From: an uncultured delta proteobacterium | GTDB taxonomy: Bacteria > Myxococcota_A > Polyangia > Polyangiales > Houyiibacteriaceae | Assembly: GCA_963753395.1 (NCBI GenBank) | Contig: CAVWBW010000008.1 | Span: 64,064 to 128,063 of the forward strand | DNA: 64,000 bases | Direction of reading: 5' to 3' | Shown here: one piece after another, positions 8,065 to 62,076 of the stretch | How positions within the stretch are numbered: position 1 is the stretch's first letter | How the letters are laid out: each line of letters opens with the position of its first letter | Notes under the pieces: model-generated | Databases searched by the model: none | Seen by the model: only the letters and a program-made list of their open reading frames with translations | What the model was told of the DNA's origin: nothing | Made by a program: the position numbers and the translations under genes

Positions 8065-9165
8065 ATGAGCGACCTCGCGGCCCCCCACATTCTGGCGCTG
8101 ACGGCGTACGAGCCTGGCAAACCTGAAGAAGAGCTTCGCCGCGAGCTAGGGCTCGACGACATCGTGAAGCTCGCGTCGAACGAAAACCCGTACGGCCCCT
8201 CACCCAGCGCGATAGCGGCCGTCTCCGGGGAAGCACTTGCGCTTCACCGCTACCCGGACCCGCGTGGACACCACCTCCGCGAGGCACTCGCCGCGCATCA
8301 CGGCGTGCTGGCGGAGGAGCTCTGCCTCGGCAACGGCTCGAACGAGCTGATCGACTTGATCTGCCGCGTCTTCGCCGGGCGAGGCGATCATGCGGTCTTT
8401 GGGCACCCTTCGTTTCCCTGTTACCGCATCGGGTCCATCGCCCAGGAGCTGCCGTTCACGGCCGTGCCGCTTCGCGAGCATCTCAACTGGAACGTCGACG
8501 ACCTCCTCGCGGCGATCACCCCGAAGACCAAGCTGCTCTTCGTCTCGAATCCGAACAATCCGACTGGGGCACACATCGACCAAGCAGACCTCACGCGCCT
8601 CCTTCGCGAGCTCCCGGGGCATGTGCTCGCCGTCGTCGACGAAGCGTACGTCGAGTACGTCGACGCGGACGGCTTCGCTCCCGCTACCGAGCTCAGAGAC
8701 ACGCGGGAGCGGCTCGCAATTCTGCGCACGTTCTCCAAAGCCTATGCGTTGGCCGGGCTGCGAGTCGGCTACGCAATTGGAACGCCGGAGCTGGTCACGC
8801 ACCTCAACCGGCTGCGGGCACCGTTCAACGTCGGCACCCCCGGCCAAGTGGCCGCGAGGGCCGCGCTCGACGACCAAGCCCATCTAAGAGCAACGGTGGC
8901 GGCTACCATCGCGGAGCGGGCCACGCTCACCAAAGGGCTCGAAGCGGCCGGCCTGCGCGTGGCGCCCAGCCAGGCGAACTTCGTTTTGGTCGACGTCGGC
9001 CAGCCGGGAAGGGCGGTGTACGAGGCCCTGCTAGAGCAAGGTGTCATCGTGCGCCCCATGGCGGCGCCGCTCGACACTTGGCTTCGGATCACCGTTGGCC
9101 TGCCGCACGAAAACCAACGCTGCCTCGACTCCCTTGGGCACGTGCTAAGGGAGTCGCGTGCATAG
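8065..9165 (+). CDS. hisC: Histidinol-phosphate aminotransferase
   Basis: KLASNENPYGPS, GNGSNELI, NPNNPTG, VDEAY, RTFSKAYALAGLRVGY. Confidence 0.95.
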   Translation: MSDLAAPHILALTAYEPGKPEEELRRELGLDDIVKLASNENPYGPSPSAIAAVSGEALALHRYPDPRGHHLREALAAHHGVLAEELCLGNGSNELIDLICRVFAGRGDHAVFGHPSFPCYRIGSIAQELPFTAVPLREHLNWNVDDLLAAITPKTKLLFVSNPNNPTGAHIDQADLTRLLRELPGHVLAVVDEAYVEYVDADGFAPATELRDTRERLAILRTFSKAYALAGLRVGYAIGTPELVTHLNRLRAPFNVGTPGQVAARAALDDQAHLRATVAATIAERATLTKGLEAAGLRVAPSQANFVLVDVGQPGRAVYEALLEQGVIVRPMAAPLDTWLRITVGLPHENQRCLDSLGHVLRESRA

Positions 9166-10516
9166 CGTCCGCAAGCGATACCGCGTCCGCCGCTCGGGTC
9201 CGCTCCGGGGCAGCGTTCGCGTCCCCGGCGACAAGTCGATCGGACATCGGAGCCTGATCTTCGGGGCGCTCGGCCGCGGCCCGTCCCGTATCACAGGCCT
9301 CTCAGAAGGGCTCGACAACCAGGCCACCCGCCAGGCGTTTCGCGCCATGGGTGTGCGCATCGAAGACAGCGACGGGGCGACCATCATCCACGGTGTGGGT
9401 TTGCGTGGCTTGCGGATGCCGGGCGACGTCGTCGATTGCGGCAACTCGGGCACCACGATGCGATTGCTCGCCGGCCTTTTGAGCGGCCAGCGCTTTGGGA
9501 CCCGCATGATCGGAGACGCGTCGCTCACACGCCGCCCGATGGGTCGCGTCATCGAGCCGCTGCGCGCGCGCGGCGCTCACATCGCGGGCACCGCAGGCGC
9601 CAAGCCGGACGAGGTCTACCCACCGATCTCGATCGCGCCGCTCGTCGAAGGCGAAGACCTAAAAGGCATCGAGTACGCCATGCCGGTCGCGAGCGCTCAG
9701 GTAAAAAGTGCACTGCTTCTGAGCGGCCTCTACGCGGCCGGCCCCACGGTCCTCGAAGAGCCCGTGCTCTCGCGCGATCACACCGAGCGCATGATGCTCG
9801 CGCTCGGCGTTCCGCTTCAAACCGCCGGCGCTTCGGTCGTTCTCGACCCACGCGTCGACTGGGGACGAGGTTGGGAGCCGTTCGAGTGGCACGTGCCGAG
9901 CGACCCATCGAGCGCAACATTTCCCCTCCTTGCCGCGGCGATGGTCCGAGGCAGCGAGGTGAGCGTCGCAGACGTTTGCGTGAACCCCACGCGTACGGGG
10001 CTCTTCGACTGGCTGCGTCTGATCGGCGCGCGCTGCGCACACCGGCCGAGCGGCCACGGCGCGGGCGACGAGCCGATGGCGGAGCTCACGGTGAGTCACG
10101 GCTCCATCCGGGGATCAGTGGCGGCTGGTGAGCTCATCGTTCGCATGATCGACGAGATCCCCGCCGTCTGCGCGCTCGCCGCTGTCGCCAACGGTAAGAC
10201 CGAGATCCGCGACGCGGCCGAGCTACGCGTCAAAGAGAGCGACCGGATCGCAACCATGGCGCGCGTCCTCGGTGCCTTTGGGGTGCCCTGCGAGGAGCTG
10301 CCGGACGGCATGATCGTCACCGGGGGCGCCGCGCTTCGGGGCGCACATATCGACAGCCAAGGCGACCACCGCATCGCAATGTCGGCCGCGCTACTCGGGC
10401 TCGTCGGCGAGGGGGAGTCGATCATCGATGGCGCGGAGGCGGTCGACACCAGCTTTCCGGGCTTCGTCGGGCTCATGCGATCGCTCGGCGCAGACATCAC
10501 GGAGGAAATTCTATGA
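9158..10516 (+). CDS. aroA: 3-phosphoshikimate 1-carboxyvinyltransferase (EPSP synthase, class II)
   Basis: PGDKSIGHR, DCGNSGTTMRL, RRPMGRV, SAQVKSA, RDHTERM, ELRVKESDRI, DHRIAM. Confidence 0.97.
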   Translation: MHSVRKRYRVRRSGPLRGSVRVPGDKSIGHRSLIFGALGRGPSRITGLSEGLDNQATRQAFRAMGVRIEDSDGATIIHGVGLRGLRMPGDVVDCGNSGTTMRLLAGLLSGQRFGTRMIGDASLTRRPMGRVIEPLRARGAHIAGTAGAKPDEVYPPISIAPLVEGEDLKGIEYAMPVASAQVKSALLLSGLYAAGPTVLEEPVLSRDHTERMMLALGVPLQTAGASVVLDPRVDWGRGWEPFEWHVPSDPSSATFPLLAAAMVRGSEVSVADVCVNPTRTGLFDWLRLIGARCAHRPSGHGAGDEPMAELTVSHGSIRGSVAAGELIVRMIDEIPAVCALAAVANGKTEIRDAAELRVKESDRIATMARVLGAFGVPCEELPDGMIVTGGAALRGAHIDSQGDHRIAMSAALLGLVGEGESIIDGAEAVDTSFPGFVGLMRSLGADITEEIL

Positions 10517-11211
10517 CTCGCCCCCGACCGGTGGTCGCGATCGATGGCCCGGCGGGCGTCGGCAAAAGCACCACCTCACGAGAGCTCGCTCGCCGGCTCG
10601 GCTACACATTGGTCGACACTGGCGCGCTCTACCGAGGCGTCGCGCTAGCCGCCCGCGAGAGGGGTATCGACTGGGCTGACGAGGCGGCGGTCGCAGCAAT
10701 CTGCCCTCAGCTCGAGCTTGGATTTGTCTCGCAAGAGGACGGAACTCCACGGCTTCTGCTCGATGGTGTGGATCGCGGGGATGAGATTCGAACACCGGAG
10801 ATGTCCTCCGGGGCAAGTCAGGTCAGCGCCTATCCCGGGGTTCGCAGGGCGCTCCTCGGCATCCAGCGGGCGCTCGGCGCCCAAGGTGGCGTGGTCCTCG
10901 AAGGGCGGGACATCGGCACGGTCGTCTTTCCCGACGCCGAGGTGAAGCTCTTCCTAACGGCGTCTGCCGAAGAGCGAGCCCGCCGTCGCGTGAAAGACCT
11001 CGAATCACGGGGGATCGCGGTCGATCAGGACGAGCTGCTCGCCCAGATCAAGGCCCGCGACGAAGCGGATTCCACCCGAGCCATCGCGCCGCTCCGGCCG
11101 GCAGAGGACGCGGTCATCCTCGACAGCACCAGCCTCGACATGGAGGCTGTCATCCGACACGTGCTGGAGTTGGTCGAATCTAGTGCCGGCCCTGCAATTG
11201 ACACCCGATAA
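10513..11211 (+). CDS. cmk: Cytidylate kinase
   Basis: AIDGPAGVGKST, DTGALYR, EGRDIGTVVFPDA. Confidence 0.97.
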   Translation: MTRPRPVVAIDGPAGVGKSTTSRELARRLGYTLVDTGALYRGVALAARERGIDWADEAAVAAICPQLELGFVSQEDGTPRLLLDGVDRGDEIRTPEMSSGASQVSAYPGVRRALLGIQRALGAQGGVVLEGRDIGTVVFPDAEVKLFLTASAEERARRRVKDLESRGIAVDQDELLAQIKARDEADSTRAIAPLRPAEDAVILDSTSLDMEAVIRHVLELVESSAGPAIDTR

Positions 11212-11226
11212 CTCCCCTGCTACCCA
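11198..11226 (+). promoter_or_regulatory. Putative sigma70 promoter of rpsA
   Basis: Perfect TTGACA (11198-11203), 17-bp spacer, TG-c-TACCCA; about 90 bp upstream of rpsA. The -10 element is imperfect. Confidence 0.45.
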
Positions 11227-11315
11227 CGACATCCCCTGCGTTTCCGGGGGCCTTCGGAACTACGGCCATGTGTGCCGGGAAGCTCTGAGCAGCTCCGGGA
11301 AGCAGTGATTTATCC

Positions 11316-13136
<1,821 letters not shown>

Positions 13137-13162
13137 CCCAGCCGCCCGCGGCACACTGACTA

Positions 13163-13191
13163 GAGCTCGGGTTCCCAAAGGACTCGGGCTC
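13163..13191 (+). terminator. Stem-loop after rpsA (possible terminator or stabiliser)
   Basis: GAGCTCGGGTTCC-CAAA-GGACTCGGGCTC hairpin, without a U-tract. Confidence 0.35.
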
Positions 13192-13237
13192 GATGTCGTT
13201 AACGTGAGCCCTAGGGGCACGCGCACGGACACCAGCA

Positions 13238-13391
13238 CCCCTCAAGACATGCGGGGGTGCGAGCCGGAACGGCGAAGCCCGGCGCGAATGCGCCGCCAAG
13301 CCCAAGCGAAGCAAGGGGCGCGGAGGTAGGATTGCGGGTGGGGGCGGGCGGGTGGATTTAACTAGACCTCCCGACTTCAATCGCGTTGGCT
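13238..13391 (+). repeat. Dispersed REP-like palindromic element, copy 1
   Basis: Shares GAGCCGGAACGGCGAAGCCCGG...ACTAxACCTCCCGAC...ATCGCGT with copies at 14686 and 61827; partial copies at 31972 and 37101(-). Confidence 0.85.
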
Positions 13392-13419
13392 GTCACTGAT
13401 CCCCTGGCATACTTCATCC

Positions 13420-14670
13420 GTGCGACTGGCTTCCTTCCTCCTCCTCGGGATCGTCCTCGCGGCCGACAGCGTCGCCTTCGCTGAGCCGATCGACTCCCGC
13501 GAGGACTATCTAGTTCGCGGGGAACCGGTGCCCCAAGGGGAGCTATTCGGAACGGTCGCGCTTCTGAGAGCCGGGGCCGAAGAGACCCTGCTTGATATCG
13601 ACGGGCTTTCGCTGCCGTACCGCGTCTTCTGCTCCGGCACGCTGATTACGCCCACGACGGTGCTCAGCGCAGGCCACTGCGTGCAGGCCTGCCCAGACGG
13701 CGACTGCCGCTGTGGCGAGGACGGCTGCCAAGTTGTAGCCACGCGCCGCATCTACGTCGCCGCAGGAATGACGGACCTCGAGAGCGTGTGGGAAGCCGAG
13801 CTCGTGGGTGTCTCCAATATCGTGCTGCAAGACGACTACCTCGACTGGGAATCGCTCGAGTTCGCGTGCGACCAATCGTCTTGTCCGGGCCTCGCCTGGG
13901 ACTCGAACGATCTCGCGCTGCTTCACCTGACGACGCCGATCACTTCCTTGCGACCGGTCGCCCTCTACCCGGAGGACCGAATCTTCGATCTGGCGGGCAC
14001 CGAAACAGTCGGCCTGGCTCAGGGGTACGGGCTGCCGCTGCCGCCAGAGAGCGAGGAGCTGCTCCCACAGGATTCCTACGTGGCCCTGCTGAACCAAGGG
14101 CCGAGCAAGATCGTACGAACGACACACAACGAGCTACTCACCACCCGCAGCGAGGACAACAGCGCGGTGTGCTTCGGCGACTCCGGGGGACCGCTCTACG
14201 TAGTCGAAGGCGGCTCGCCGATGGTGGCCGGAGTGGCATCGAGACTGCGTGGCGACGCCCGCGAGTGCGACGGCGGAGGCGTCTACGCACTCGCCCCGGC
14301 GTACACCGAATGGATCGAGGACAACGTCACCGGAGAGCTCCCATCCCCGTCCAGCGGAGCAGGGGGCTGCTCGGCGTCACGCCCCAGCAGCCCCAGCAGC
14401 GTCGTTGCGCTGGGCCTGGGACTTCTTGTCGTTTTGCTGCTTCGCTCAAGGCGCGTTGCTTCGATCGGAGTCGCCGTTGGCATCGAGGTCGACGTCAGCG
14501 AGGCCGTGGTCGGACCCGCTGTGTGTATTCCAACCCGCCCGCTCGAGGTCACTTACGTCTATGCTTGTCGATCGGACGCGCTCTTTTCGAACATCGTCAG
14601 CTTCGAAGGACAGGTTGTCCACCTAGACGATCGAGCCAACCCCGTCGCCGTAGTCCTGACTGACCCTTAG
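13420..14670 (+). CDS. Secreted S1 (trypsin-fold) serine protease with MYXO-CTERM-like segment and shortened C-terminal tail
   Basis: Signal peptide; CSGTLI, SAGHC, NDLALL, CFGDSGGP triad motifs; GAGGCS...LGLGLLVVLLLRSRR. Confidence 0.85.
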   Translation: MRLASFLLLGIVLAADSVAFAEPIDSREDYLVRGEPVPQGELFGTVALLRAGAEETLLDIDGLSLPYRVFCSGTLITPTTVLSAGHCVQACPDGDCRCGEDGCQVVATRRIYVAAGMTDLESVWEAELVGVSNIVLQDDYLDWESLEFACDQSSCPGLAWDSNDLALLHLTTPITSLRPVALYPEDRIFDLAGTETVGLAQGYGLPLPPESEELLPQDSYVALLNQGPSKIVRTTHNELLTTRSEDNSAVCFGDSGGPLYVVEGGSPMVAGVASRLRGDARECDGGGVYALAPAYTEWIEDNVTGELPSPSSGAGGCSASRPSSPSSVVALGLGLLVVLLLRSRRVASIGVAVGIEVDVSEAVVGPAVCIPTRPLEVTYVYACRSDALFSNIVSFEGQVVHLDDRANPVAVVLTDP

Positions 14671-14685
14671 GAGGATCACTGGCGC

Positions 14686-14808
14686 GCCCCCAATCCATGC
14701 GCGGCAGCCCGAGCCGGAACGGCGAAGCCCGGGGACGCGGGGGGAGGATTACGGGTCGGGGTGGGTGGGCGGTCTTGACTAAACCTCCCGACGCCAATCG
14801 CGTTCGCT
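14686..14808 (+). repeat. Dispersed REP-like element, copy 2 (internal deletion)
   Basis: CCCCCAATCCATGCGCGGCAGCCCGAGCCGGAACGGCGAAGCCCGG then the G-rich arm; lacks the GGCGCGAATGCGCC segment. Confidence 0.85.
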
Positions 14809-14856
14809 AGGACTGGCACTGTCGCTCACACTGATCGCGTGGCATAGTTCCGCTCC

Positions 14857-16515
14857 GTGCGGCTGACTCCCTTGTCCCTTTTCGTGTTTGGCCTCCTTGC
14901 GAGCGTTCCCGCAGTAGCCCGGGCTGATTCCGTCGATTCAGGTGAGGAATACATCGTGGGCGGTCGTCCGGTCGTGGCCGGTGAGACGCTTGCGACGGTC
15001 GGATTGGTCTACGCGTTCGAACCAGCCGAGTCCGAGGACCTGTCTGCGCTCCACTTCCTGGAGCTTGTCGGATGCACGGGGACTCTCATCGCTCCCGCCG
15101 TGGTCGTCACTGCAGCGCACTGCGTCGACAACTGTCTCCGCGACGCGAACTGCGATGCTCCCAACGACTCCGGCGAGACGTGCGAGTGCGAATCGCACCC
15201 GCCGCCGGACGGCACGCTCTTCGTCGCGACTAGGCTACGAACTCTGGATGACGTTTGGCGTGCAAACGCCGTGGCCGTCAAAGAGGTCTTCATCCACGAG
15301 GAGTGGGGGGTGTTCGCCGAGTGGGACATCGACCCGGAAACCGGCCTCGGCGTCGGCGTACACGACATCGCAGTCGTCGTGCTCGCATCACCGATCGGCG
15401 AGATAGAACCGGCGCGTCTGTGGCCAGCCGACTCCGCGACCGATCCCGAAACGGGCCTTGCGCAAGGCTACGGCTTGCAGGAACAACCCTTCAGCGACGA
15501 ACTAGGAAGACAAGAGGAATTTGAATCGCTGCTCAACGAGATCGAGCTCCCAATCGAAGCCATGACCGCCGAGGAGGTTCTCACCGGAGCGGGAATGGAT
15601 GACGGCGGCCTTTGCTTCGGCGACTCGGGTGGGCCCCTCTACGTACGGGAAGGCAGTGCTCTCTTCCTGCTCGGCGTTGCGTCGAGGGCAACGGGCGGCG
15701 CTGGTGACGACGCGCCATGCTCGCCGGGTGGAGTCTACACCTCCGCAAGCGGACACGCCGAATGGATCCTAGACAAAGCCCCCTCTGCGGCCGTGGGCTC
15801 GGACGGCGCCGGCGGCTGCTCGATCCGCAGCCAAGCCTCAAACCGTGGCGCGTGGATCTTGCTGGGTGCACTGCTCGGTTGGGTTTGGTTCCGCCGGCGG
15901 CGCCGAGCGCATGCTAGCGCGCTGTTGGTCGTCCTGGGTCTCCTCGCCGCCTGCGGCGGCTCTGACGGAGAAGCGGCGTTCTGCACCCCTTCGCGCGATC
16001 CCTCAGGCGCATTTTGCAATCCAGGGGTGGCGCGACTCGACCTTCAATCCGCCGAGCGACTCGCGCGAGAGGCGGCGGCCGAAGGGGCATGGCTCTGGGC
16101 GGCCTCGTCAGACGGCACGCGCGGCCTCAACCCCGATGGCGTCGCCGAGTCTTGGTTATTCGACTACTACATGCCCGAAGCGACAGCGTCCGAGCCCCTG
16201 GATCTCGAGCGTATCACCGTGTCCGCTTCGGGGGAGATCACGCAGGTGAGCCAGCCCGGCTCTCTGTCCTGCGTCCCGGAACGTCCGCTGCGCGCAATCG
16301 ACTCACGCGCCATCACCCACCACGCCATTGGCCGCATGTCGGAGGCGGGAACGGAGGTCCAGGTGGGTGGGTCGCCCGACCTCCAAATCGTGCAGCGTCA
16401 CATCTGCGACTCCGCGTCTACCTACTGGAATCATGTCGCCTACGGAGACGTTTACGTTTTCTACGACGGGAGCGGCACGTTCCTAGGGCTCATCGACTTC
16501 GCGACGCTCGAGTAG
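14857..16515 (+). CDS. S1 serine protease with internal MYXO-CTERM, lipoprotein signal and C-terminal domain
   Basis: IVGG, CTGTLI, TAAHC, HDIAVV, CFGDSGGP; GAGGCSI...WILLGALLGWVWFRRRRR followed by AHASALLVVLGLLAAC. Confidence 0.88.
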   Translation: MRLTPLSLFVFGLLASVPAVARADSVDSGEEYIVGGRPVVAGETLATVGLVYAFEPAESEDLSALHFLELVGCTGTLIAPAVVVTAAHCVDNCLRDANCDAPNDSGETCECESHPPPDGTLFVATRLRTLDDVWRANAVAVKEVFIHEEWGVFAEWDIDPETGLGVGVHDIAVVVLASPIGEIEPARLWPADSATDPETGLAQGYGLQEQPFSDELGRQEEFESLLNEIELPIEAMTAEEVLTGAGMDDGGLCFGDSGGPLYVREGSALFLLGVASRATGGAGDDAPCSPGGVYTSASGHAEWILDKAPSAAVGSDGAGGCSIRSQASNRGAWILLGALLGWVWFRRRRRAHASALLVVLGLLAACGGSDGEAAFCTPSRDPSGAFCNPGVARLDLQSAERLAREAAAEGAWLWAASSDGTRGLNPDGVAESWLFDYYMPEATASEPLDLERITVSASGEITQVSQPGSLSCVPERPLRAIDSRAITHHAIGRMSEAGTEVQVGGSPDLQIVQRHICDSASTYWNHVAYGDVYVFYDGSGTFLGLIDFATLE

Positions 16516-16534
16516 GGAGGGGGCCAGAGAAAGG

Positions 16535-16560
16535 CGGTCCGAGGGTCGAGTCTCGGACCG
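16535..16560. terminator. Hairpin between convergent genes
   Basis: CGGTCCGAG-N8-CTCGGACCG perfect 9-bp stem. Confidence 0.45.
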
Positions 16561-16585
16561 ACCGCTCGCGCCGGTGCTGACCGCC

Positions 16586-17341
16586 TCAGTGCACGCTAAT
16601 CACAACTGCCGTAATATTGTCCCGGCCACCCCGCGCGTTCGCCATTGCGATGAAGCGTTGTGCGGCGCCGTTGGGACCCATGTCGATTACGTCCGGGATC
16701 TCGTCGTCTTGGAGATAGCCGTGGAGACCGTCTGAACAGAGCAGATACGCGTCGGAAGGGCGCACCTCGAAAAAGCCCGTATCGACTTGCACGTACTCGC
16801 GGCTTCCGACCGCGCGCGTGATCACGTTGCGGTGCGGGGAGCGGGCGGCTTCGGCCTCGGTGATGATCCCTTGCTTGAGCTGCCAGGCGACGAGGGTGTG
16901 GTCTTCGGTGAGCGGTTCGGCCGATTGCCCGCGAACACGGTAAATGCGGCTATCGCCGACCTGCGCCGTGATTCCGTAATCGCCGCACATTGCGAGCACG
17001 GAAACGGTCGTGCCCATGCCTTGCTGATTGGGATCGTGCTGTGCCAGGCCGAAGACCATGTACGTGGCCGCCTGTACAGCACTCTCGGCCACGCGGATGG
17101 CCTGCCGGAGCGAGTCCTCCGAGGTGTCGCCCTGCGCCACCTTGTCGAGCGCCCCGTGGCCACGGATCACCATTCCGTGAACGGTTTCGACAGCCTGCTG
17201 GCTGGCGATCTCGCCCGCGGCGTGGCCGCCCATACCGTCTGCGACGACGTACAACCCGAGGTCGTCATCGACGAGGAAGGCGTCCTCGTTCAGTTTTCGG
17301 CGCTGGCCAACGTCGGTCAGTCCCGCACTGTGATATTGCAA
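16586..17341 (-). CDS. PP2C/Stp1-family Ser/Thr protein phosphatase
   Basis: TDVGQRRKLNEDA, VADGMGGHAAGE, MGTT, VGDSR, RNVITRAVG, LCSDGL, GGRDNIT. Confidence 0.95.
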   Translation of the reverse strand: MQYHSAGLTDVGQRRKLNEDAFLVDDDLGLYVVADGMGGHAAGEIASQQAVETVHGMVIRGHGALDKVAQGDTSEDSLRQAIRVAESAVQAATYMVFGLAQHDPNQQGMGTTVSVLAMCGDYGITAQVGDSRIYRVRGQSAEPLTEDHTLVAWQLKQGIITEAEAARSPHRNVITRAVGSREYVQVDTGFFEVRPSDAYLLCSDGLHGYLQDDEIPDVIDMGPNGAAQRFIAMANARGGRDNITAVVISVH

Positions 17342-31972: not shown

Positions 31973-32046
31973 CGCGAGCCGGAACGACGAAGCCCGGCGC
32001 GAATGCGCCGCCAAGCCCTACTTGCCAACGCTGGCGCGAATGCGCC
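31972..32046 (+). repeat. Dispersed REP-like element, partial copy 4
   Basis: GCGAGCCGGAACGACGAAGCCCGGCGCGAATGCGCCGCCAAGCCC plus a second GGCGCGAATGCGCC at 32033-32046. Confidence 0.8.
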
Positions 32047-37100: not shown

Positions 37101-37204
37101 GCCATCACCCGGCCACCCCTGCCCGTAGCCCCCCCCTCCGCGCCCTGCGCTTCGCTTCGACTTGGGGGCGGATTCTCGCCGGGCTCCCCCGTGCCGGCTC
37201 GCGC
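37101..37204 (-). repeat. Dispersed REP-like element, diverged inverted copy 5
   Basis: Minus strand GCGAGCCGGCACGGGGGAGCCCGGCGAGAATCCGCCCCCAAGTCGAAGCGAAGCGCAGGGCGCGGAGGGGGGGCTACGGG. Confidence 0.7.
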
Positions 37205-37220
37205 CTGAGCTAGGGCGACG

Positions 37221-61826: not shown

Positions 61827-61983
61827 GCCCCCAATCCATGCGCGGCAGCGCGAGCCCGAAGGGCGAAGCCCGGCGCGAATGCGCCGCCAAGCCTCGGCGA
61901 AGCAAGGGGCGCGGAGGGAGGACTACGGGCGGAGGCGGGCGGGTCGGATGTAACTAAACCTCCCGACGCCATTCGCGTCCGCT
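61827..61983 (+). repeat. Dispersed REP-like element, copy 3 (full length)
   Basis: High identity to copies 1 and 2, with a compensatory GCCC-GAA-GGGC hairpin. Confidence 0.85.
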
Positions 61984-62076
61984 GACGCCGACGCTTGCGC
62001 CGAAGGCCCGTGGGCGGTGCGCAGCATCGCCTCTACGGGCTGGCGCTGGGGCCGACGCTGGGGCACGCTAGCTGGG

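Follow-up and report, generated by a model that had tools for sequence, protein, structure and literature searches.

Open reading frame (ORF) 14857–16515 of the window, by which we mean the whole 64,000-nucleotide stretch of DNA analyzed here, probably encodes a single precursor that is cut twice, yielding an S1 protease lipid-anchored at its C-terminus and a PepSY-like partner lipid-anchored at its N-terminus that would stay bound to the protease as a chaperone-like regulator. The two products would arise at 1:1 stoichiometry. The hinge that joins them is a phylum-wide design and is not special to this ORF.

Organization of the ORF and its double sorting signal

The frame is open from a GTG start at 14857 to a TAG stop at 16515 and encodes 552 aa, along which a signal peptide, an S1 protease, a MYXO-CTERM (Cys321), an RRRRR cluster, a lipobox signal (Cys366) and a 187-aa domain follow one another, as shown in Table 1. 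A first-pass annotation, made from the letters alone, had described an intact S1 protease with H-D-S motifs, and this was borne out. PF00089 (trypsin) spans residues 71–304 (E 2.9e-16, 60.4 bits against a cut-off of 20.6), and the invariant triad of His88, Asp170 and Ser257, IVGG at residue 33 and the fold matches all place the protein in Peptidase S1. Ala23 is invariant in the homologue alignment (A2), and at the predicted activation site Tyr32 was observed in 14 of 23 rows and Ile/Val33 in 21 of 23. The extended protease loop is presumably the 140s loop by chymotrypsin numbering.

The same annotation had claimed that a MYXO-CTERM-like signal follows the protease and that the frame runs on, with no stop, into a lipobox Cys and a further domain. 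The continuation was confirmed, the frame passing through Cys366 at nucleotide 15952 into the domain beyond. The tag itself was also upheld, with TIGR03901 (cut-off 20) giving 22.5 bits in the genome search and 17.6 bits, below the cut-off, on the whole protein. A MYXO-CTERM is usually C-terminal and a Sec/SPII signal usually N-terminal; here, 202 residues lie beyond the Arg cluster and the lipobox signal is internal in the fused ORF. The Sec/SPII pattern is nevertheless present, with RRRRR as a basic n-region followed by 15 uncharged residues, the last four of which are LLAA, so that the Cys completes LAAC. The GGCS of Cys321 matches the ordinary terminal MYXO-CTERMs of the same genome, in which the TIGR03901 search gave 11 matches; nine of them end at most 40 residues from the C-terminus, and the only two long-tailed ones are ORF 14857–16515 and its upstream paralogue. 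A strict regular-expression scan, which gave four matches and missed ORF 14857–16515, was replaced by this HMM search. The window's genome (G000) contains LspA, two Lgt genes and a myxosortase that scores 127.9 bits with NF040914 (cut-off 100). Judging by the tag, this myxosortase and the records of related proteases, the phylum is probably Myxococcota. The NCBIfam 'lipo-invert' tail model NF058595 remained below its cut-off of 37 bits, at 17.9 and 20.2 bits.

Table 1. Features of ORF 14857–16515 and its upstream paralogue in window coordinates.
Feature	Position	Strand	Basis
Tandem paralogue: S1 protease, MYXO-CTERM and shortened tail without lipobox, predicted-contact segments only	13420–14670	+	profile, alignment
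N-terminal Sec/SPI-type signal peptide, predicted cut after Ala23	14857–14925	+	sequence
Activation peptide, 9 residues, ahead of IVGG; zymogen predicted	14926–14952	+	sequence
S1 chymotrypsin-fold serine protease, His88/Asp170/Ser257; S1-specificity-setting position is Gly	14953–15786	+	PF00089, alignment, fold
Extended loop 3′ of GYG motif; residues 216–223 predicted partner-binding	15475–15528	+	co-fold, loop comparison
Internal MYXO-CTERM: GAGGC 15805–15819 (Cys321 at 15817), TM segment about 15850–15891, RRRRR 15892–15906	15805–15906	+	TIGR03901, alignment
Internal lipoprotein signal: Arg cluster n-region, 15-residue h-region, lipobox LLAA-Cys366 (15952)	15892–15954	+	sequence, alignment
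187-aa lipoprotein domain, predicted tandem PepSY-like fold, conserved Cys pairs 376/387 and 472/517	15952–16515	+	alignment, AF2, fold comparison

Conservation of the fusion in the genus

The fusion is due neither to chance nor to misassembly, being found in ten other genomes of the genus (nine intact, one frameshifted) and in a contig of run X2. The profile of the C-terminal domain matches 16 of the 55 genomes of the genus; fusion through the same hinge was observed in 11 of the 55 (10 intact including G000, one frameshifted), in five of the 16 nothing but a stand-alone gene or a fragment of the domain was found, and both forms coexist in one genome. The X2 contig, possibly from the source sample of the assembly, covers 14781–16700 with three differing letters and no gap. 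At least two full-length fusions were obtained from a contig scan keyed on the protease motif, and longer forms of the partner domain were protease fusions only, which, at three matches among 7990 scored candidates, is weak evidence. A fused homologue with several frameshifts, either a pseudogene or the product of assembly errors, was noted (L009/L035, G020:C2:140474-142059).

Full-length or near full-length fused proteins with 32–45% identity to ORF 14857–16515 were aligned in 23 rows. Cys321 and Cys366 are invariant in all of them, a result that upholds the first-pass annotation, which a variable lipobox Cys would have refuted, and are spaced by 43–51 residues. Gly/Ala precedes Cys366, after an uncharged stretch of 9–18 residues, in 23 of 23 rows, with the hinge sequence itself diverged. 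The strict textbook lipobox is present in only five rows and is weak in 18. A stop or a separate gene at the junction was looked for in the homologues, and no junction stop was found, so a fusion artefact is not supported. The fusion is no artefact because it occurs in 11 of 55 genomes, its cysteines are invariant and the stand-alone lipoprotein starts at the same Cys. The second signal looks functional.

Separate translation of the lipoprotein from an in-frame internal start, like an assembly error, is very improbable. Ten of 11 junctions do contain an in-frame TTG, GTG or ATG 12–40 codons from the lipobox Cys, but the positions are not conserved, only one of the 11 junctions has a start with a Shine-Dalgarno-like word, the 12 codons between it and the Cys leaving too little room for a signal, and ORF 14857–16515 offers a single candidate, TTG at −31, without such a word. 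The 11 genomes and the X2 contig speak against an assembly error. A single cut is a more serious alternative, though an unlikely one: either Lgt/LspA act at Cys366, which is simplest, leaves the protease in the inner membrane on the hairpin and frees the lipoprotein, or myxosortase acts alone and the partner stays there. One cut suffices for two chains, the lipobox is weak in those 18 rows, and loss of myxosortase in Myxococcus xanthus leaves surface display partly intact, according to the accessible text of PMC11980579. Against this, both cysteines and their Gly/Ala neighbours are retained in every row, and GGCS is the same as in the ordinary terminal tags of the genome; both points favour two cuts.

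Stand-alone relatives and phylogeny

A profile of the partner domain gave 73 matches among 1.84 billion representatives. Those of about 200–250 aa with an intact start mostly have an ordinary N-terminal lipoprotein signal with its Cys just before the domain, and the stand-alone domain begins at the Cys homologous to Cys366. Five long matches (P0063, P0068, P0069, P0073 and P0075) were dropped as repeat-driven chance matches. No protease was present in the flanks of about 1.5 kb of the stand-alone genes L007, L010, L011 and L031, whose DNA was checked; since many stand-alone members have no protease within that distance, the domain can work without one.

The phylogenetic tree comprised 58 rows and was rooted at the midpoint, with the five chance long matches and short fragments left out. 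All 27 fused rows were placed in a single branch of 34 rows (support 96/68, not starred), in which seven stand-alone rows are nested, and the fused/stand-alone label needs five changes on the tree. This topology is compatible with a single fusion and repeated later loss of the protease, a putative order given by the midpoint root. A widespread family of unfused S1 proteases that are about 363 aa long, end in a MYXO-CTERM-like tag and lack the long loop was observed in 19 genomes of the genus (L261–L279); a protease of this type was not seen in G000 at E 1e-20.

The same hinge across the phylum

Myxococcota were searched for an internal MYXO-CTERM followed by a second signal; the first-pass annotation had suggested such a search for a lipobox. 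Sorting tag, Arg cluster and new signal peptide, of lipobox type or SPI type, join unrelated partners at no fewer than 72 loci; these lie in 57 of the 300 genomes sampled from the phylum and are spread over 16 families outside the window's own; this count is a lower bound from a biased choice, with 22 candidates scored per genome, and is not an unbiased rate. The first hinge profile was built from 11 hinges and run on the 300 genomes. Among the 33 places with long profile coverage that were examined, 30 had the tag, the Arg cluster, the second signal and a long tail, and three did not. A broader profile added 42 places, picked for near-full coverage and absence of a stop. In every one of these, a second hydrophobic signal is present and the frame stays open for 183 residues or more, counted from the tag, with a lipobox-type Cys in 24 of the 42 by script (23 by eye) and SPI-type signals in the others.

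The partners behind the hinge include MXAN_2562-family barrels, which follow MXAN_2561-like proteins (204.5 and 191.9 bits, cut-off 100), TraB-like barrel/OmpA regions in five proteins (below the cut-off of that model), an amidase plus propeller, and two glycoside hydrolases. A recurring fusion of 1400–1600 aa with a Cys-rich lipoprotein half was also encountered (L074, L077, L083, L085, L094, L100, L102, L103 and L105), among whose scanned halves no NCBIfam match was obtained at E 1e-5, and at one locus (L080, G165:C565) the hinge leads into a lipoprotein of only about 50 residues with a Gly-rich CGC motif at its end.

An unfused MXAN_2561/2562-like pair occurs in G000 itself (L280, G000:C1:46136-46972), in which the tag ends in RRRRR-stop and its TGA overlaps the next GTG by four bases; the barrel gene of this pair is spread over two frames, and its upstream neighbour seems to shift frame as well. 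By its sequence, one indel in such an overlap of tag stop and next start would create a hinge. A fusion of overlapping genes of this kind would leave both signals behind, which agrees with the idea of an uncut two-pass inner-membrane protein with both domains periplasmic and the signals persisting as fusion fossils that serve as anchors. We consider this improbable, for fossil signals should lose their cysteines, whereas both are invariant at the identities given above, and in the stand-alone descendants the same position serves as an N-terminal lipobox that looks functional. Outer-membrane barrels, moreover, must leave the inner membrane to fold. They sit behind SPI-type second signals at the same joint and need release from the inner membrane, so at least the SPI-type hinges are argued to be cut.

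Fold of the partner domain

The partner had been called PepSY-like by eye, and its predicted fold agrees with this where its sequence does not. The AF2 model built on 46 sequences (partner pLDDT 92.8) contains two helix-plus-sheet repeats. The best fold match was 4EXR (Z 9.3, rmsd 3.7, 131 aligned; Foldseek probability 0.97, E 0.15), modestly above the best Z of typically 7–8 expected by chance, followed by FoxB (Z 6.0), YpmB (4.7), YpeB (4.0) and a vibriolysin precursor (3.7); 4EXR, FoxB and YpmB are proteins that we take to be PepSY-like. Foldseek returned no match at E under 0.001. By sequence, no Pfam match was obtained for the 186 residues after Cys366, none of the 46 domain members matched a PepSY family at E 0.1, and no solved chain matched the partner family. 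A lead from the Atlas scored 0.75, with PepSY on 18% of that cluster. Taken as a model, the structure points to a tandem PepSY-like domain by fold that is not PF03413 by sequence.

Pairing of protease and partner

The two halves (residues 33–310 and 371–552) were co-folded as the first-pass annotation had proposed, giving 0.77, with the best of three controls at 0.37. Among 157 solved complexes 116 attained the co-fold mark, and among 215 mismatched pairs two did; these counts hold roughly here, where the input was our own paired 23-row alignment. The runs share at least 92% of contacts, with a partner pLDDT of at least 87. Contacts were predicted at residues 63–68, 130–134 and 216–223 of the protease, presumably its 30s, 70s and 140s loops by chymotrypsin numbering, and at 470–476, 516–517, 523–524 and 535–551 of the partner. 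The triad and the S1-pocket residues are absent from these contacts, and binding is thus predicted away from the active site, which favours a chaperone-like or allosteric partner over a classical substrate-like inhibitor. Of the earlier suggestion of a cognate inhibitor or chaperone, the pairing was supported, and substrate-like inhibition now appears less likely. The full-length AF2 model (pTM 0.76) hints that the two domains are held in a fixed position relative to each other; in this membrane-free model, residues 329–364 form one continuous low-confidence helix and no hairpin.

Independently of the co-fold model, sequence differences between fused and unfused forms were found on both sides of the predicted contact. 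The protease GYG aligns with GWG. Twenty-two of the 23 fused proteases have a GYG-to-CFGDS distance of 49 and the remaining one of 54, against 41 in each of the 19 unfused sisters; the loop after GYG is eight residues longer than in all of these sisters. Every one of the 23 fused proteases has the loop motif and none of the 19 unfused ones does, the 19 being one family and so a single comparison. In the partner, C[IVL]P at 472–474, on a predicted contact strand, was observed in 25 of 27 fused and two of 31 stand-alone domains; at position 475, where ORF 14857–16515 has Glu, Thr occurs in 22 of the 27 fused rows. Positions that have lost the fused consensus are over-represented at the interface (p 0.022 for all rows, 0.016 for nested rows, by a permutation that ignores kinship), and interface columns in the fused rows are barely more conserved than the rest (0.54 vs. 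0.51). Both predicted contact surfaces are largely specific to the fused forms.

The upstream paralogue and its surroundings

The protease of the paralogue belongs to the same subfamily (75% to the fully fused copy of G007) and has the long loop. Its tail of 76 residues retains the CIPT strand and last sheet of the partner together with both cysteines, and its mean local score against the partner is 30.4, a value reached by none of 1000 shuffles (mean 18.9). Through two apparent in-frame losses, the tail (14443–14670) lacks the lipobox, a helix and the greater part of the first repeat. Over 13930–14661, a contig from another study is identical, and the short-tailed form was not found in other species. 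The tail may be a product of decay or a minimal module.

The partner might instead be an independent binding protein that is merely co-exported and does not regulate the protease, a reading to which we assign a small share of the probability. PepSY-fold proteins also bind metals, as noted in the accessible text of PMC9988556, most members of the family stand alone and none of the 46 matches Pfam PepSY, and in the sources available in part the regulation by PepSY domains is described for M4/M36 peptidases and SleB and not for S1 proteases. Such independence is countered by the co-fold, which passes with its controls, by contact motifs that are fusion-specific on both sides, and by the paralogue, whose short tail retains just the contact segments.

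An interspersed repeat of about 140 nt lies upstream of both protease genes (13246–13415 and 14691–14850), with further copies in the window at 31974–32018, 37106–37205 and 61832–61984. Its copies in G000 merge into 164 places (144 of them ≥60 nt) distributed over 13 contigs, often clustered a few hundred bases apart, and copies adjoin the homologous genes in G007 and G020. No Rfam match was obtained in 13000–16800, which includes two copies of the repeat. It could be a REP-like or cassette-boundary element tied to the patchy spread of the genes. Just upstream of both proteases, 8065–13136 contains a housekeeping run that by eye reads like hisC, aroA, cmk and rpsA.

Discussion

In the two-cut reading that we prefer, the protease would be exported by Sec through its N-terminal signal until the MYXO-CTERM helix stops transfer, with the Arg cluster remaining cytoplasmic as is established for MYXO-CTERM in the accessible text of PMC11980579. 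The second hydrophobic stretch would restart export, giving a hairpin with both domains outside. Cys321 would be processed by myxosortase and Cys366 by Lgt and LspA, enzymes that the genome encodes. In the model, the products would then dock through the Cys472 edge strand of the partner and the extended loop of the protease, off the catalytic cleft. The partner likely helps to fold the protease and to hold or position it, by analogy with what is proposed for YpeB on SleB (PMC13556211, in its available part), and it may either restrain or stimulate the enzyme. The fusion would guarantee that the pair is produced and exported together.

Several known systems resemble parts of this arrangement, and the statements on them here refer to the available parts of the sources cited. 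The MYXO-CTERM/myxosortase system (TIGR03901, NF040914; 10.1101/2023.06.07.544157) has the same Cys motif, TM helix, Arg cluster, N-terminal signal and myxosortase; ORF 14857–16515 differs from a typical MYXO-CTERM protein in that its tag is not terminal. Internal MYXO-CTERMs are called rare, with MXAN_5598 of M. xanthus as an example (Guo, Haft, Wall, mBio 2025, PMC11980579). That protein likewise has a mid-protein MYXO-CTERM, is proposed to be processed and is thought to be a fusion of two genes like traA/traB; however, processing is proposed there for the N-terminal part only and the partner is a barrel/OmpA region, whereas in ORF 14857–16515 a lipobox signal follows the tag and the partner is a PepSY-like lipoprotein. 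No description of a second signal after an internal MYXO-CTERM was found in the accessible part of PMC11980579 or in the literature searched, in which an earlier mention may exist; the available text of the Haft preprint (10.1101/2023.06.07.544157) does not mention internal tags, polyproteins, lipoproteins or fusions, and that of PMC6372800 does not mention a natural fusion. VesB of Vibrio cholerae (PMC11389362) is also a surface serine protease whose tripartite C-terminal tag is cleaved by an intramembrane protease, but it uses GlyGly-CTERM and rhombosortase, and its tag is terminal without a fused partner. YpeB/SleB and the M4 peptidase pro-domains (PMC13556211; 4EXR, YpmB 2GU3, YpeB 5BOI) share the predicted two-repeat sheet-on-helix fold, and YpeB shares a membrane-tethered partner predicted to hold the enzyme with the catalytic groove left uncovered. 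Compared with these PepSY chaperone-inhibitors, the present partner has no PF03413 match, serves an S1 client, and lies C-terminally in the same ORF with a lipoprotein signal of its own.

No paper on polyproteins split at internal signal peptides was found in our search. Bradyrhizobium FbcH and viral envelope polyproteins are reportedly split at internal signal peptides by signal peptidase I at one site. There, too, an internal signal restarts export and marks the cut, whereas in ORF 14857–16515 two lipid-anchoring systems would act on one 45-residue hinge. To our knowledge, few bacterial polyproteins are processed by housekeeping sorting enzymes.

More tentatively, and with somewhat less than even confidence, the hinge might be a general envelope polyprotein code of Myxococcota, in which about 45 residues are read by myxosortase together with LspA or SPase I so that a single ORF gives separately sorted partners; it would join a surface protease of the trypsin family to a PepSY-like exosite regulator in the present case, and the paralogue would carry a trimmed 55-residue binding module. 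On that tentative reading, this would also be the first dedicated PepSY-like partner of an S1 protease found in the literature searched. A hinge in at least about a fifth of the sampled genomes would mean that many annotated 'single' envelope proteins of myxobacteria are in fact two, and the fused partners would point to obligate pairs that are TraA/TraB-like, MXAN_2561/2562-like, amidase/propeller or protease/regulator. The ORF would provide a compact test substrate for two questions raised in the accessible part of PMC11980579, namely which enzyme lipidates MYXO-CTERM and whether internal tags are processed, and the hinge could be put to use for 1:1 co-display at the surface.
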